Assembly: GCA_050115555.1 (NCBI GenBank)
Contig: JASFQI010000003.1
Coordinates: 1 to 40,945 of the forward strand
Length of the DNA stretch: 40,945 nucleotides
Direction: 5' to 3'
Origin: Desulfobacteraceae bacterium
GTDB lineage: Bacteria > Desulfobacterota > DSM-4660 > Desulfatiglandales > HGW-15
Part shown: positions 27,041 through 33,474 of the stretch, one piece after another
Layout: every line of letters begins with the position of its first letter
How positions within the stretch are numbered: position 1 is the first letter of the stretch
Position numbers and translations under genes: made by a program
The notes under the pieces: model-generated
The model's database searches: none
The model's input: the letters and a program-made list of their open reading frames with translations, nothing else
Told to the model about the DNA's origin: nothing

Positions 27041-29461
27041 TCATTGCTCACGGGACGGCTCGGTTTCGCCCTGGAAATCGCCCGTACGGCCGACGGTCTG
27101 AGATGCCGGCGGAAAATAGAGGGTAAATGTTGTCCCGCCGGATGCGTAGCAGTCTTCCTCCCGCTCACACCAAGGGCAACGGCGAATCTCTCCGGGACAA
27201 ATATCCTCGTCCAGTGGAATGAATCGGCAGCGGGTGGACTGCATCTCGATCTGAAAATCATACTGCTCCGAGAAGATCTTCATCCGCAGCAGATCGGCGC
27301 CTTTGCCTCCGGCATTGAAGTCAAAAGGCCGTTTGGACGAGTAGTTCATGGTATCCTGCGTGGCGAAGAACCCCTCGAAGATGCGACGCTGATTCTCCTC
27401 GGTAATTCCGACACCGAAGTCTCTGACTACGAGTTCACTGCCTTCACCCTTCCCGCGCACAGCGATCTCGATCCTTCCCTGATCCGGGGTGTTCTCCACC
27501 GCGTTTTTCACCAGCCCGTCCACCACTTTTTCCAGCACTTCCTTTGGAAGGTACAGGGGCGGCACCTTTTCCAGCCTGGGGTTCACACCCACGGCTCTGT
27601 GATCAAAACGGGGCGAAAGACGGTTGAGCCGCTCTTTAACAAACCGGTCCAGCCGAATCTCCTCCGGTCGTGTCTCCTTGGGGTGATAGGTCTCTTCAAT
27701 GCGTTCGCGAATGCGCTCAACCATCGGGCCCTCTCCCACCTCCTCCGCCACGAGCGCTTCCAGCTCATCCTTGCACTGGTCCAGTAGGGAGGAAACCAGG
27801 GTGTATGCCCTGTATTCCGTTCCCTTCATGATGTCCTCTACCTGGTACTGGATTTCCAGGAGCCGCTGAAGGTTCCTTTGGGCGCGTTCGATGGTGGGCT
27901 GCCACTGTTCCCTGGGAATGTCCGTAAGACGTTTGGTCAAAATACTCAAAGATGCGGAAAGAACCGATATGGGAGTCTTCAGCTCATGAGACAAGTGGTT
28001 GATCACGCGATCCTTGGCCCGGTTCAACCCGGTGACCTCCCGGTAGGCCTTTTTGATCTCCTCGGAGAAACGGGCATTCTCAATGGACAGCGCAACCGTG
28101 CCTGCAATCATGTTCAGGAGCTCCACATCCGTCTGATCGAAATCATTCTCCTTGTTGACCGCACAAAGGACCCCGATGATTCGATCGCCGCTTCTCAAGG
28201 GAACATCGAGCATGTTGCGGGTGGGGTACCCCATCTGATCGTCTATGACGGAGTAGAAATGGGGGTCCTGGGAAGTGTCGGGAACAATGATCGGCTCGCC
28301 CGTTCTGATGACGTGTCCGGATACACCCTTATCTGCTGGGTACCGGATCTTTTTAGCACGCCTTTCAGCCGAGGAATCCTCGTGGGCAACTCCCAAAAAA
28401 AACAACTCTTGCCTCTCTTCGTCCAGAAGAATGACCAGGGCCCCCTGAACGTCGAGGAGATGCTTGACCTCTGCGCTGATGAAGTCGAGGAGTTCCTCCA
28501 GGTCGGGATAGGCCGGCAGGGCCATGCTGATGCGCAGAAGGGCCTCGGTGTTTCGAGCCATGCGTTTTTCCCGGGTGACATCGCGAAGAAAGACGAGCTC
28601 CCCTTGGGGCTCTCCGTCGTCCTCCGTAACCATCGCAACCCGCATGATCGTATCAAGCACCCTGCCGTCCTTGGTCAGCCGCTTGCTCTCGTGACGCGAG
28701 ATGATCTTCTCTTTCAGGAGACGGCGAATGTTTTGCCGCGTCTCCTCCTGAAGGCCCGGAGGCACATAGGGAATTCGTTTGCCCTGCAGTTCCCCCAGGG
28801 TCCACCCGAAAACCTCTGTAAACGCCGGATTGAGATAACTGACTTTGCCCTCTGCGGTGAAGACGACCATCGGATAGGGGACGAAATCCAGCAGCCTCCG
28901 ATATCGCTGGGCCGATATTCTGCTCTCCTCGTACTGGCACTGGAGCTTGTACTCGGACTCCTGGAGGGCCTGCCTGGAACGGACCCGCTCCGTTACATCC
29001 CGCGCAATACCGCGAAATCCGACTTTTTCTCCGCTCCTGTTTGTGATCAGGCTGGCGGAGAGTTCGATGATTCGGGTGTTCCCGTCCCGGTCAATGATCT
29101 TCCAGACGAGATCGGATACGGGTTGGCCGGAACGAAAAATACGGTTGAAAACCTCGACGGCCTGCTGGGCATGCTCCTCATCCATGAAATGGCTGAAATT
29201 CCGCCATTGGATCTCCTCTCTTGCATACCCGAATGCACGACATAATGCGCTGTTGAAGTAGATGAAGTTCCCGTGAATATCCACTTCGTAGACGCCGTCA
29301 TTGATGCCTTCGATAAATGCACGGTACCGCTCGTCCGCAAGCCGCTCCGGGCCGGATTCGGGCTTTTCCGGGACCTGCTCGGGTTGGGCGCCTGACCCCT
29401 CACGAATCCCGGGAGTTTCCTTGTGCCGTTTCGGTCTTTCGTTTTCGTCCGCTTCCTTCAT
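27041..29461 (-). CDS. Cytoplasmic PAS-PAS-GAF sensor histidine kinase
   Basis: Two PAS/PAC domains (RDVTER, RDVTRE), GAF (IIGVLCAVNK..FDQTD), H box SHELKTP, N box KNAVE, G1 DFGVGI. No TM helix seen. Start refined to 29461. Confidence 0.92.
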   Translation of the reverse strand: MKEADENERPKRHKETPGIREGSGAQPEQVPEKPESGPERLADERYRAFIEGINDGVYEVDIHGNFIYFNSALCRAFGYAREEIQWRNFSHFMDEEHAQQAVEVFNRIFRSGQPVSDLVWKIIDRDGNTRIIELSASLITNRSGEKVGFRGIARDVTERVRSRQALQESEYKLQCQYEESRISAQRYRRLLDFVPYPMVVFTAEGKVSYLNPAFTEVFGWTLGELQGKRIPYVPPGLQEETRQNIRRLLKEKIISRHESKRLTKDGRVLDTIMRVAMVTEDDGEPQGELVFLRDVTREKRMARNTEALLRISMALPAYPDLEELLDFISAEVKHLLDVQGALVILLDEERQELFFLGVAHEDSSAERRAKKIRYPADKGVSGHVIRTGEPIIVPDTSQDPHFYSVIDDQMGYPTRNMLDVPLRSGDRIIGVLCAVNKENDFDQTDVELLNMIAGTVALSIENARFSEEIKKAYREVTGLNRAKDRVINHLSHELKTPISVLSASLSILTKRLTDIPREQWQPTIERAQRNLQRLLEIQYQVEDIMKGTEYRAYTLVSSLLDQCKDELEALVAEEVGEGPMVERIRERIEETYHPKETRPEEIRLDRFVKERLNRLSPRFDHRAVGVNPRLEKVPPLYLPKEVLEKVVDGLVKNAVENTPDQGRIEIAVRGKGEGSELVVRDFGVGITEENQRRIFEGFFATQDTMNYSSKRPFDFNAGGKGADLLRMKIFSEQYDFQIEMQSTRCRFIPLDEDICPGEIRRCPWCEREEDCYASGGTTFTLYFPPASQTVGRTGDFQGETEPSREQ

Positions 29462-29814
29462 GAATTCTTCCGTATTGCACGATCCGCGTTCCCTGCACTT
29501 CAACAGGGAATCGCTTGGAATGATCGAAAAAATGAATGAATTTTATTTATACCAAATCAGCATAAGTTGTCATTACAATTCTATTGTTATCCTCTTCTCT
29601 CCTGTGCTATGTTCTCGGAACTGGTGAGTCTTTTTCTCCGTCCCGACTGGGCATCCCCGGGTTCGTCGTTTCCACCAGCCCGGCTCGGGAGGCGGGAAAG
29701 CCGTTTCATTCAATCCTGGTATATTGCATACACGTTCCCGCCAGGGCGGAATGACGGATGCGGGAACGAGGACGTTTTCTCTCTGAAGCCCCTGACTGTA
29801 CTCGAGGTCTGGTC

Positions 29815-30456
29815 ATGGACAAAACACTGAAAATTCCCAAGGCGACAATCAAGAGGCTGTCGCTTTACTATCGTCAACTCGAACTCCTGGAGTTCGACGG
29901 GTACCGCATGGTCAGCTCGGAAAAAATGGCCTGGCTGTGCCAGGTGAACCCCGCTCAGGTCCGCAAGGACCTGGGATACTTCGGTGAATTCGGAGTCCGA
30001 GGCGTGGGTTATGACGTGCGCGAGCTCATGCACGAGATCAAAAAGATCCTCGCCGTCAACAGGACATGGAACCTGGGAATCGTAGGGCTCGGGCATCTGG
30101 GCACTGCACTCTTTCATCATCAGAATTTCCCCGCCCGCGGCTTCCAGTTCGTGGCTGCGTTTGACTCCGATCCAGAGAAAATCGGTCATCACATCGGGCC
30201 GGATCTCGTGATTCAGGACAGCAGGGATATTCCCGAGGTTTCTCGAAAGAGGGGAATCCAAATCGGCGTGATTGCAACCCCTGCCGCCGAGGCCCAGACT
30301 GTGGCCGAAGACTTGGCAAGGGGGGATATTCATGCGATTCTGAACTTCTCCCGCACACAAATTCAGGCGCCTGAGGACTGTATGGTGGAAGACATTGATC
30401 TGACCATCCGCTTGGACATCCTGACGTACCGCCTGAAACAGGAACTCGAGGCATAG
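29815..30456 (+). CDS. rex: Redox-sensing transcriptional repressor Rex
   Basis: IPKATIKRLSLYYR, QVRKDLGYFGEFGVRGVGY, GLGHLG, FDSDPEKIG, ILNF. Start refined to ATG 29815. Confidence 0.95.
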   Translation: MDKTLKIPKATIKRLSLYYRQLELLEFDGYRMVSSEKMAWLCQVNPAQVRKDLGYFGEFGVRGVGYDVRELMHEIKKILAVNRTWNLGIVGLGHLGTALFHHQNFPARGFQFVAAFDSDPEKIGHHIGPDLVIQDSRDIPEVSRKRGIQIGVIATPAAEAQTVAEDLARGDIHAILNFSRTQIQAPEDCMVEDIDLTIRLDILTYRLKQELEA

Positions 30457-30502
30457 GACAGGGTCGCAGGGACCTCACCGAACTGCCGGAGAAGGGCCGG
30501 AT

Positions 30503-31204
30503 ATGGAGCATAAGCTTATCGTATTGCTGTTTTGCATGTGCATGGCGGCCGTGCCCTACCCGTGCCTGGGCCAGACCGTTCAAGGGCCGAAAATCCTGAT
30601 TGAAGAGCCGGAGTTTGATTTCCATAAAGCGGATGAGGGCCAGGTCGTCTCACACGATTTCGTCGTGAGGAACCTGGGCAACCAACCCCTGGAAATCACA
30701 AGAGTGGCACCCGGTTGAGGCTGTGCGGTTCCGGAATTCGACCGGATCATCCCCCCCGGCGGGGAAGGGATCATCACACTGAAAGTCAATACCCGCGGGC
30801 ACCCCGGGATCCTTCGAAAAAGCGCCAGGGTTTATTCAAATGATCCGGTGAAACGTATCCGCAAGATAACGGTGACGGGGCGGGTTCACACTCCCATCGT
30901 GCTTTCTACGCCTTCTCTCTACTTTGTGGGCCTTTCCAACTCAAACGTCCAAAAAGCCGTAACAATTCATGCCAAAGAGGAAAAGCCGCTCCGCATTGAA
31001 GTCCTTTCATTTAATCTGGCGGACAAGCTGAGGTATCGAGTAGAGGAAGTGATTTCCGAGAAAGAGTTCCGTATAACCTTTCATACCATTCCAGATGTAT
31101 CAGGCACCTATTTAGGTGCTATGAAAATAAAAACAAATTACCCGAAAAAGCCTATACTGACCATCCATATACGAGGACGAATAAAGCAGGCCCCCGCTCC
31201 ATGA
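30503..31204 (+). CDS. Exported DUF1573-like Ig-fold protein, probable selenoprotein (Sec at TGA 30716-30718), 233 aa
   Basis: ORFs 30503-30718 and 30848-31204 share a frame with only one TGA between them. Read-through gives FDF...HDFVVRNLGNQPLEITRVAPG-U-GCAVPEFDRIIPPGGEG...VYSNDP, a continuous DUF1573-like domain in which U replaces the first C of the CGC motif. N-terminal signal peptide. Confidence 0.8.
30730..30746 (+). promoter_or_regulatory. Candidate bacterial SECIS hairpin
   Basis: The stem-loop TCCGG-AATTCGA-CCGGA begins 11 nt after the in-frame TGA. Confidence 0.55.
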
Positions 31205-31361
31205 GAGCAACCCGCCGTTGCAGGGATAACCAAATCCTATGGGATCAGGCAAGGCCTGTTGGCTTGCCGGGGACGGATCCTGTAAGAGGATGAAAAACGA
31301 GCCGTTAAGCGGTCGGGCGAGGATGGACCGCGACAGCAATGGAAACACGATGGAAACCGGA

Positions 31362-31811
31362 ATGGAACGAGATTCAAGGAATTGGGTGGAAATTTTCACT
31401 GACGGGGCCTGTAGCGGAAACCCCGGTCCGGGCGGATACGGGGCTATCCTGAAGAGGGGAAAGCATACCCGGGAGCTTTCAGGGTGTGCGGTTCAGACCA
31501 CGAACAACCGCATGGAACTCCTCGCCGTCATCGAGGCACTCCGTCTTCTCGAGTCGCCGTGCCGTGTCCGGATCACGACGGATTCCAATTACGTCGTGAA
31601 GGGAATGACGGAATGGATTTCCGGTTGGATACGCAGAAACTGGGTGAATGCCCAAAAAAAACCGGTTCTCAACCAGGATCTCTGGCAAACCCTTCTCCGT
31701 CTCAGCAAGCCGCACGACATTGAATGGCAGTGGGTTCGCGGTCACCACGGGCACCCGGAAAACGAGCGCTGTGACCAACTCGCCCGCGAGGCGATTCCGC
31801 GTTGTCTCTGA
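31362..31811 (+). CDS. rnhA: Ribonuclease HI
   Basis: [52 protein letters not shown]. Start is 31350 or 31362. Confidence 0.96.
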
Positions 31812-32211: not shown

Positions 32212-33342
32212 ATGAAATGTCCCAAGTGTGGCTATGTCAGTTTTGACTACAATTCGACCTGCCCCAAATGCAACAAAGACATTACCGAAGAGCGGGATAA
32301 GCTGAACCTGCCGACGTATAAACCTTCCGTCCCGTTTCTGCTCGCGGCCTTGACCGGCGAGGCCGAGGAGTCGCCTCTGGATGTCAATATTGCATCTGCA
32401 AGCGGTCCGGCGATGGGCGTCGCGGCAGAGGCGTTGAGCTTCCAGGAAGAAGAAGAGGTCGCCGTCCTCGAAGAAGTAGAAGTGGATTCCGATGAAGAAG
32501 ACCTCGAGATCAGCTTTGAGGACGAGTGGTCGCCTGAAGGCGTGGAAGAGGAGCCGGTCGTTGCTGAAGACTTTGCCGAGCTGGGATCCGAGGAGGCCGT
32601 AAAGGAGGAAAGCATCTCTGATGATTTCTCCGAACTGGATCTTGAACTGGAAGGACCGGAAGAGACGGCAGAGCCGGTTGCCGAAGAGGAGGAATCGGTG
32701 ATCTCCTCGTTCGAGGAGGAGGAAACCGGAGAAAGCGAAGAAATCTCCTTCGACTTGGAGGATCTCGCATCCGAGGAACCCGCTCCCGAGGCGGTTGCGA
32801 CCGAGGTACCCCCCACCGCAGAAGACGACCTCTCGATCGACCTCGAGGCCCTGAGCCTGGACGAGGATGAATTCGAGGAAACCATCGACGCCGAGGACTC
32901 ATCCCCCACAGAGGAAGAGCCGGAGCCGGAGATCGATCTGGATTCCGTCGCATTGGACGAGGAGGAGGTATCCCCTCCAGAAGCGAAGGAAGAAGAGGTG
33001 GTCCTGAACCTGGATGACCTCAAGATCAATGAAACCGGCGAATTGGAAGTCGGTTCCCCGACTCCGGAGCCTTCTCCAGAGGACGCTGAGCTCGAGGAAA
33101 GCGATGATGAAACCCTTGACCTGGATGGGATCTCCCTCGACGAACCTGAGCCAGAGGATGAAGCGGCTCCCGAAATGGTACCGGTATCCGAAGGAGAGGA
33201 ACTGACGATCAACCTGGACGACTTGTCTCTTGACGACGAGATCACCGAGCTTGAGTCGGGCGGCGACGAAGAACTCCCGTTGGACCTGGATGATCTGGAC
33301 CTGGATCTGGATTTGGAAGAGGAGCCCGAGAAGACGTCCTGA
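32212..33342 (+). CDS. Zinc-ribbon protein with a very long Asp/Glu-rich disordered region
   Basis: AGGAG RBS. MKCPKCGYVSFDYNSTCPKC is followed by about 300 acidic residues with recurring (I/L)DL(D/E)xL motifs. Confidence 0.88.
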   Translation: MKCPKCGYVSFDYNSTCPKCNKDITEERDKLNLPTYKPSVPFLLAALTGEAEESPLDVNIASASGPAMGVAAEALSFQEEEEVAVLEEVEVDSDEEDLEISFEDEWSPEGVEEEPVVAEDFAELGSEEAVKEESISDDFSELDLELEGPEETAEPVAEEEESVISSFEEEETGESEEISFDLEDLASEEPAPEAVATEVPPTAEDDLSIDLEALSLDEDEFEETIDAEDSSPTEEEPEPEIDLDSVALDEEEVSPPEAKEEEVVLNLDDLKINETGELEVGSPTPEPSPEDAELEESDDETLDLDGISLDEPEPEDEAAPEMVPVSEGEELTINLDDLSLDDEITELESGGDEELPLDLDDLDLDLDLEEEPEKTS

Positions 33343-33398: not shown

Positions 33399-33474
33399 GC
33401 CGAGATAGCTCAGTCGGTAGAGCAGGGGACTGAAAATCCCCGTGTCCCCAGTTCAATTCTGGGTCTCGGCACCA
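33399..33474 (+). tRNA. tRNA-Phe (GAA)
   Basis: 76-nt cloverleaf: acceptor stem GCCGAGA/TCTCGGC, D arm GCTCAGTCGGTAGAGC, anticodon arm GGGGA-CTGAAAA-TCCCC, T loop TTCAATT, encoded CCA. Confidence 0.98.

Follow-up and report, generated by a model that had tools for sequence, protein, structure and literature searches.

A probable OS_HP2 selenoprotein gene between rex and rnhA in a Desulfobacteraceae genome

Whether an in-frame TGA cuts a bacterial gene into two fragments or is read as selenocysteine (Sec, U) is the question raised by positions 30503-31204 (+) of contig JASFQI010000003.1 from a Desulfobacteraceae bacterium (GenBank assembly GCA_050115555.1); the whole stretch analysed, 40,945 nucleotides from the start of that contig, is referred to below as the window. 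The region, which lies between rex and rnhA, forms one frame of 233 codons with a terminal TGA at 31202-31204. The open reading frame (ORF) at 30503..30718, of 71 amino acids, and the ORF downstream share this reading frame, the sole internal stop is the TGA of codon 72 in the context CCC GGT TGA GGC TGT (P-G-U-G-C), and the read-through product of 233 residues is free of any other lesion. In this study, we provide comparative evidence that the region very probably encodes one 233-residue selenoprotein of the known OS_HP2 family rather than two fragments, and the locus is almost certainly a true selenoprotein gene.

The initial annotation had joined the two short ORFs into one frame around a single TGA, with a hairpin starting 11 nt past it and a 46-nt gap behind rex. 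Coordinates and frame were confirmed (rex stop at 30454-30456, ATG at 30503, stem from 30730), but the description of the selenoprotein as "hidden" has to be dropped, since OS_HP2 (pfam07610, with a UxC motif) was already published in 2007/2008 and current NCBI-style annotation can name the gene through a curated NCBIfam model.

A TGA at a fixed column of the OS_HP2 family

With C standing in for U, the protein reached 110.8 bits with the NCBIfam model NF041425 "OS_HP2 family (seleno)protein" over residues 34-128 (curated cut-off 100), and the window gene reached 97.4 bits in a six-frame search with the stop left in. The Pfam domain DUF1573 (PF07610) was matched over residues 33-128 (E = 8.4e-21; 74.3 bits, gathering score 26.1; aligned to positions 3-98 of the 98-position profile), and PF22544 was matched within the same domain at E = 1.4e-07. 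Membership in OS_HP2 is borne out by the score above the cut-off, by the DUF1573 domain and by Sec or Cys at the first position of U/C-x-C; the stem-loop after the UGA and the Desulfobacterota host are further points of likeness, and nothing in the window protein excludes it from the family.

The decisive evidence comes from the column that holds the TGA. A six-frame NF041425 search of the own genome and 40 relatives from the same family and order (41 genomes) gave matches in 36 genomes at 54 places, with exactly one in-frame TGA at 48 of them and none at 6; the own genome has a single OS_HP2 copy. Using the first domain of the window protein as a tblastn query, 53 of the 54 places were located (L062 was missed), and the codon aligned to U72 in these 53 copies was TGA in 47, TGT in 4 and TGC in 2. 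The expectation that Cys forms of the DUF1573-like domain carry a CGC motif agreed with the six Cys homologues, five of which have C-G-C and one C-D-C. A collection of named GTDB genomes was scanned with a 10-sequence alignment, which yielded 193 confirmed relatives, the best 80 being kept, and among these best 80 of 193 the TGA was found at the column in 80 of 80 loci, that of L119 standing one column later after a 1-residue insertion. A scan of the same collection with the single protein gave 87 pattern matches, none of which was confirmed. The 80 named records are metagenome-assembled genomes (MAGs) labelled Desulfatiglandales, Desulfobacteraceae/-ales, Thermodesulfobacteriota or "Deltaproteobacteria", together with the cultured delta proteobacterium NaphS2 (L101), and 14 of the 79 in-register TGA contexts of this set (L119 left out) are identical to contexts of the first set.

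Conservation extends over both sides of the TGA. Full-length homologues share 33-53% identity across it, the block PG-U-GC-x5-FDRxIPPGGEGKITL is near-invariant, and N57, U/C72, C74, P85 and T211 are invariant columns in a 42-sequence alignment. The same TGA recurs in contigs of other runs. One from the DNA run X3, a wetland metagenome that may share a campaign with the source, spans 30390-31062 and differs from the window at 3 positions, the TGA not among them; another, from the RNA library X5, covers 30592-30742, including the TGA, with 0 differences. The tblastn comparison with the read-through protein that the initial annotation had proposed thus returned TGA or Cys at the exact column with both flanks conserved. 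Every located homologue has TGA, TGT or TGC there, which leaves no non-Cys form to speak against it, and a TGA or Cys codon at a fixed column with conserved flanks rules out a private mutation, as does, for a sequencing error, its recurrence in the relatives and in the DNA and RNA-library contigs. To judge from the aligned codons, the column pattern is the classic Sec/Cys signature, and it means that Sec is strongly preferred over Cys at this OS_HP2 column in the lineage.

The family itself is not new. The passages available from Zhang & Gladyshev 2007 (PMC1976440) introduce OS_HP2 together with five other new selenoprotein families from the metagenome of the Olavius symbionts, and give 2 Sec sequences, 0 Cys homologues then known, and the delta-proteobacterial symbionts of Olavius algarvensis as the source. 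The corresponding table row of the 2008 Global Ocean Sampling paper reads "OS_HP2 / pfam07610 / UxC / 2 / 2 / 354", i.e. 2 Sec and 354 Cys (PMC2398784), and the motif UxC / UGC is also listed in passages of reviews of 2022 and 2026. The window gene adds one more member to a family known since 2007, and its discovery value is small, given that the Pfam domain and the UxC motif were likewise published in 2007/2008. The OS_HP2/DUF1573 passages in the full-text literature, figures and supplements being outside their scope, hold no account of rex-OS_HP2-rnhA synteny, a second domain, an export signal or paralogue neighbourhoods, and those of the 2026 review contain 0 mentions of periplasm, signal peptide, Desulfobacterota or unknown function. 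Synteny, second domain, export signal and paralogue neighbourhoods are therefore modest additions to the published family, and the two-domain architecture, the putative signal peptide and the large number of Sec forms described here likewise go beyond the published passages.

The SECIS-like hairpin and the selenocysteine machinery

The selenocysteine insertion sequence (SECIS) of the E. coli fdhF type is a stem-loop bound by SelB, with a minimal element 11 nt after the UGA and a conserved G in the apical loop. In the window the stem begins 11 nt past the final A of the TGA, and an extra G-C pair (30728/30748) lies beyond a U-U mismatch. As the coding region after the UGA has no indels, folding energy could be compared with that of synonymous recodings over the region +9 to +39, and drawing the codons from the same set of genes makes this control conservative. 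The window's own sequence gave z = -2.85. Over the 43 Sec genes of the first set the minimum free energy was -7.64 against -4.18 kcal/mol for the recoded sequences (mean z -1.62; z below -1 in 31 and below -2 in 19), and a replicate with 65 further unique Sec contexts gave -8.07 against -4.40 kcal/mol (mean z -1.68; 48 below -1, 22 below -2). For the six Cys homologues the values were -4.82 and -4.00 kcal/mol (mean z -0.48; 2 of 6 and 1 of 6). The excess of structure over synonymous recodings is thus seen in Sec genes and not in Cys homologues.

Compensatory change points the same way. In 108 distinct sequences, pairs were counted in a fixed register that sets columns 13-20 against 28-35 and includes a second helix over the Pro/Gly codons. 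Of the cells, 79.4% were paired, against 35-57% when the 3' partners were slid by 1-3 columns, and double changes were seen in 67 cells, where shuffles gave 27.8 and none of 500 reached the observed count, although these shuffles ignore relatedness. Helix 1 has changes on both sides in 7 of its 8 pairs. The Phe/Tyr-Asp codons make up the apical loop, in which 96 of the 108 sequences have a G, that of the Asp codon. The register itself varies, the dominant i+j = 46 applying to only 56 of the 108 and other values to the rest. We conclude that the hairpin 11 nt downstream is maintained beyond the amino-acid requirement, and the earlier identification of a SECIS-like hairpin at this spacing is backed comparatively, by the recoding tests and the compensatory changes; its significance shows only against synonymous recoding and in comparative data. 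In spacing, apical-loop G and structure kept at synonymous sites it resembles the fdhF-type element, from which it differs in a short stem of variable register, the likeness being one of sequence and predicted folding. The second hairpin, in which a C-run pairs with a G-run on the I-P-P-G-G-E-G codons, gave recoding mean z values of -1.24 and -1.03 in the two sets of Sec genes and +0.82 in the Cys homologues; its role is uncertain, as the pairing is largely forced by the Pro/Gly codons.

The window comes from a 4.83-Mb MAG of 460 contigs, with 93.73% completeness and 4.57% contamination. Found in this genome were selB on contig C98 (TIGR00475, 328.7 bits), a SelB C-terminal fragment at the end of C49 that is cut by the contig end, selD at C249:4744-5670 (L003; 382.5 bits), and two tRNA-Sec(tca) genes, one adjoining selB. 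The selD gene has one in-frame TGA, so that the SelD of this organism is probably a selenoprotein itself. The two tRNA-Sec(tca) genes and two selB-like pieces lie at C98:7312-10631 (L015), C17:973-1070 and C49:19987-20124, and this pairing reflects either a real duplication or the contamination. The cluster on C98 comprises selB, yqeB (selenium-dependent molybdenum cofactor maturation, 273.5 bits), a VhuD/MvhD-like gene and tRNA-Sec; the ORFs around selB were considered as candidates for selA and ruled out, being YqeB, a VhuD/MvhD-like protein, an activase and a double-cubane reductase. Elsewhere, a selA-like fragment with one in-frame TGA was seen in a relative at G004:C91:2337-2738 (119 bits, below the cut-off), and the same genome has a normal selA in another place.

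Protein architecture and genomic neighbourhood

The features of the locus and its two flanking genes are collected in Table 1. The hydrophobic N-terminus of the protein has no twin-arginine motif, and nearly all relatives combine a hydrophobic N-terminus with small residues and a conserved Q/E-x-x-GPK start, a pattern from which we infer export through the Sec protein-export pathway, with a cleavage site. An AlphaFold2 model built on the 42-sequence alignment (mean predicted local distance difference test score 95, predicted TM-score 0.77) consists of a helix at residues 2-15 and two immunoglobulin (Ig)-like beta sandwiches at 31-129 and 132-228. Residues 71-73 (G-U-G) form a turn between strands 63-70 and 74-79, so that in the model Sec72 is placed at an exposed tip and Cys74 opens the next strand. 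Domain 2 is conserved in relatives, including the motif LKTNYPEKP. Longer forms of about 320-340 residues (L017, L027, L032, L038, L054, L056, L101, L105 and L110) have a third Ig-like repeat after domain 2, hence the number of C-terminal repeats varies within the family.

Table 1. Features of the rex-OS_HP2-rnhA region (window positions)
Feature	Position	Strand	Basis
rex, redox-sensing transcriptional repressor	29815..30456	+	NF003993 273.1 bits; Pfam Put_DNA-bind_N + CoA_binding
Spacer between rex and the selenoprotein gene, 46 nt	30457..30502	+	Shine-Dalgarno-like purine-rich run GGAGAAGGG at 30488-30496, as read from the sequence
Probable selenoprotein gene, OS_HP2 / DUF1573 family	30503..31204	+	NF041425 110.8 bits (cut-off 100), C standing in for U
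Hydrophobic signal-peptide-like segment, residues 1-24, MEHKLIVLLFCMCMAAVPYPCLGQ	30503..30574	+	sequence; predicted helix 2-15
Domain 1, DUF1573, predicted Ig-like beta sandwich with U-G-C (residues 33-128)	30599..30886	+	PF07610, PF22544, model
UGA codon 72, probably read as selenocysteine	30716..30718	+	TGA aligned in 47/53 located copies and 80/80 named loci
Cys74 codon TGT, partner of Sec72 in U-G-C	30722..30724	+	invariant column, 42-sequence alignment
SECIS-like hairpin	30730..30746	+	stem UCCGG 30730-30734 / CCGGA 30742-30746, 5 bp, 7-nt loop AAUUCGA
Second hairpin, I-P-P-G-G-E-G codons, C-run pairing G-run	30749..30771	+	helix 2 91.9% paired
Domain 2, predicted second Ig-like beta sandwich (residues ~131-228)	30893..31186	+	model strands 132-228; no Pfam family
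rnhA (RNase HI)	31239..31811	+	NF001236 225.7 bits

A PDB sequence search with the protein gave no match at E up to 1. Foldseek comparison of the model with the PDB returned ASH/HYDIN-type Ig domains of ciliary central-apparatus proteins, with E down to 1.2e-12, and 2qsv, a two-domain Porphyromonas gingivalis W83 protein of unknown function (E = 7.5e-10). The likeness, which the PF22544 match of domain 1 shares, lies in tandem Ig-like sandwiches of the ASH / HYDIN-VesB-CFA65 kind, but identity to the window model is 11-15% and whole-chain TM-scores are 0.33-0.46, these scores being low because the orientation of the domains differs. To our knowledge, none of these structures has a catalytic role or Sec, thus the comparison names the fold and not the function. 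A thioredoxin-fold oxidoreductase with U/CxxC at the N-terminus of a helix was considered and ruled out, as the model is all-beta and the UxC lies in a beta turn; the protein may, to judge from the model, work like a redox protein yet outside the thioredoxin fold family.

Among relatives, rex stands directly upstream in 12 of 53 first-set copies and 28 of 80 named loci, and rnhA follows downstream in 16 of 53 and 35 of 80, both in the gene's own orientation. Where the neighbours are present, their orientation is uniform, as all 41 loci with rex and all 52 with rnhA have it on the same strand as the gene (counts that include the window and the overlap of the two sets). The gap between rex and the gene has a median of 33 nt and ranges from -11 to 296 when the first possible start is used. 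The Cys form L065 has rnhA downstream too. In the window, the true start of rnhA may be later than annotated, as its RNase H domain begins at residue 50 of the ORF. From rex to the end of rnhA the + strand is free of terminator-like sites, which together with the same-strand adjacency makes co-transcription with rex plausible; from the arrangement, the gene probably shares a transcript with rex, and perhaps also with the downstream rnhA. Contigs of RNA libraries extend over 30014-30501, taking in the 3' end of rex and all of the spacer and stopping 2 nt short of the ATG, over 30940-31090, and over 31172-31322, the last bridging the stop of the gene and the start of rnhA; the stretches without such cover (30780-30923 in X5; most of the gene in X7) carry no evidential weight.

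Further away in the window, the divergently oriented gene upstream of rex (27041-29503, -) encodes a PAS-PAS-GAF histidine kinase of 820 residues, and no promoter-like site was found in the approximately 300 nt between the kinase ORF and rex. Downstream, a 376-residue ORF at 32212-33342 (+) combines an N-terminal zinc-ribbon-like CxxC...CxxC with a very acidic, low-complexity remainder and has no Pfam match; it is followed by tRNA-Phe at 33399-33474.

Copies of OS_HP2 outside the rex-rnhA setting are found in different company. For the 74 loci with neither rex nor rnhA, the longest flanking ORF on each side was scanned against Pfam (142 ORFs), a choice that can miss small genes or take shadow ORFs, and 36 of the 142 had no family. 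The neighbours were an SBF/PF01758 transporter at 12 loci, rhodanese at 9, methionyl-tRNA formyltransferase at 6, CDF cation efflux at 5, a GGDEF response regulator at 4, MauE and LPG-synthase TM at 3 each, TauE, ArsP_1, TerB-DnaJ and thioredoxin at 2 each, and DsbD_TM and MsrA-MsrB at 1 each. In L107, L112, L114, L115, L118, L119 and others, SBF/PF01758 lies upstream of the Sec-DUF1573 gene and a CDF exporter, rhodanese or MauE-like gene downstream, which looks like a recurrent, undescribed gene cluster; in L107, L112 and L115 the order SBF-OS_HP2-CDF is tight and on one strand. Judging from these neighbours, OS_HP2 genes keep company with thiol/persulfide redox genes that face the periplasm and with metal(loid) exporters. 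Copy number also differs among genomes, with six places in G003 and three in G002 (two on its contig C8), nearly all with TGA, and one in the window's genome. Two loci of G003, L063 (C129) and L064 (C132), form a distant Sec-DUF1573 subgroup with a T-U-A-C motif; one of these genes adjoins a cytochrome c554-like ORF, and the other has two CxxCH haem-binding motifs upstream in the same open frame.

Selenocysteine and a possible role in redox chemistry or metal(loid) binding

The alternatives to a selenoprotein gene account for little of this evidence. Taken alone, the window offers only two short ORFs and a weak hairpin, and selA was not found in the assembly, as would be expected if the TGA were a real stop, introduced by gene decay or assembly error, that leaves a 71-residue fragment or no functional product. 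That is very improbable, as 47 of 53 and 80 of 80 relatives have the TGA at an identical column, conservation downstream is strong with no other lesion, contigs from other runs carry the same TGA, NF041425 was curated as a selenoprotein model, and structure at synonymous sites is confined to Sec forms. Reassignment of UGA in the lineage (e.g. to Trp or Gly), or general read-through, instead of SECIS-directed Sec insertion, has nothing specific in its favour and was considered only because the frame stays open on TGA read-through; it is close to untenable, since the gene's own terminal stop is TGA, as is that of many neighbouring ORFs, the homologues carry Cys at the column, neither Trp nor Gly, the genome has tRNA-Sec, selB and selD, and each gene has exactly one TGA at a fixed column.

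With a genuine selenoprotein as the preferred reading, the question becomes what the protein might do. SelB with Sec-tRNA(Sec) would bind the hairpin as a SECIS element and insert Sec at UGA72, and the hydrophobic N-terminus would direct export through the Sec pathway, so that the mature protein would be present in the periplasm as two tandem Ig-like beta sandwiches. According to the model, Sec72 and Cys74 would lie in an exposed tight turn between two strands. In the least certain steps of this scheme, the U-G-C pair might cycle between selenolate/thiol and selenenylsulfide, and the protein might serve as a periplasmic redox relay or chalcogen carrier, or as a binder of soft metal(loid)s. The CGC peptide is a mimic of protein disulfide isomerase, mammalian thioredoxin reductase ends in Gly-Cys-Sec-Gly (GCUG), and DoxX-rhodanese complexes offer an analogy for a redox/chalcogen relay. 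The U-G-C turn resembles CXC and vicinal chalcogen motifs in that a pair of chalcogen residues, with one Gly or nothing between them, lies in an exposed and flexible element where a small-ring selenenylsulfide might form in principle, but the OS_HP2 scaffold is an Ig fold and not a thioredoxin or flavoprotein fold. The reading of its function that we prefer, though tentatively, is that the U-G-C turn could quite possibly be a redox-active selenenylsulfide/selenolate centre in a periplasmic electron or chalcogen relay.

As the main rival, the U-G-C turn of a genuine selenoprotein might instead be a site for soft metals or metalloids (As(III), Hg, Cd/Zn, Cu(I), or tellurite or selenite products), the protein acting as a periplasmic chaperone or sink alongside efflux transporters, which we consider somewhat unlikely. 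In the passages available, reviews list several metal-handling selenoprotein families with UxxC-type motifs. Same-strand neighbours of the paralogues include SBF/PF01758 (12 loci), CDF (5), ArsP_1 (2) and TerB (2), with the tight SBF-OS_HP2-CDF arrangements among them, and Sec72 and Cys74 are the only invariant potential ligands; SBF/PF01758 is the family to which the ACR3 arsenite carriers belong. Against this, the transporter contexts belong to paralogues and not to the window's rex-linked orthologue group, no metal-related gene adjoins the window's own copy, and with two ligands, three residues apart, the coordination number would be low for most metals unless a dimer forms. The same scan also gave rhodanese (9), MauE (3), thioredoxin (2), DsbD_TM (1) and MsrAB (1), which fit redox chemistry.

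Several observations weigh against an exported, rex-linked redox selenoprotein, in whole or in part. The neighbourhoods of the paralogues point to metal(loid) transport as often as to thiol redox, and the available OS_HP2 literature passages give no measured selenium incorporation, export or redox activity for any member. A dinucleotide shuffle over the 75 nt after the TGA gave z = +0.34 and did not set the short 5-bp hairpin apart; being uninformative, it was replaced by the synonymous-recoding controls. RNAalifold on 43 gapless sequences did not return helix 1, nor anything in the first 40 nt, and recovered only the Pro/Gly-codon helix; as this miss is due to the shifting stem register among sequences, the fixed-register pair counts were used instead, with shuffles that do not take relatedness into account. 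In the own MAG, selA was found with neither PF03841 nor TIGR00474. Of the selABCD set to which the initial annotation had tied its reading, selB, selD and selC (tRNA-Sec) are thus present and selA is missing from a 93.73% complete MAG, which leaves the Sec pathway of this assembly incomplete. Since selA lies above the cut-off in 22 of 24 relatives (the two without it being 72% and 83% complete) and the MAG is incomplete, an assembly gap is the likeliest explanation. As for the link with rex, no RNA-library contig bridges the rex/ORF junction by at least 31 nt, and these contigs attest to presence in RNA libraries, with DNA carry-over possible, rather than to a single transcript or an expression level. 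The consensus of the Rex operator is TTGTGAA-N6-TTCACAA. With up to 3 mismatches, this canonical operator had 0 matches in the whole window, where 1.16 are expected by chance, although this is a weak test, as the Rex of this lineage may have a motif of its own.

A wider proposal, speculative and rather doubtful, is that Desulfobacterota possess an undescribed system for chalcogen/redox chemistry or for the handling of metal(loid)s, in which OS_HP2 would be the selenium-based component at work in the periplasm. One group of orthologues would be fixed in a rex-OS_HP2-rnhA unit, and the paralogue groups in operons with SBF-type transporters, CDF exporters, rhodanese, MauE-like membrane proteins and c-type cytochromes, and the Sec-Gly-Cys turn on an Ig scaffold would represent a new redox/chalcogen-transfer site outside the thioredoxin fold. 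If this were true, the level of OS_HP2 in the rex-linked group would follow the cytoplasmic NADH/NAD+ ratio through Rex.

For annotation, the finding means that this locus is one intact gene and not a pseudogene, and for the organism, a Desulfatiglandales-like member of the Desulfobacterota from wetland or sediment, that it uses selenocysteine. OS_HP2 appears as a widespread, highly conserved and putatively exported selenoprotein on an Ig-like scaffold. Its preference for Sec, its conserved second domain, its linkage to rex and rnhA, and the paralogues in transporter, rhodanese, MauE and cytochrome clusters provide handles for functional study.

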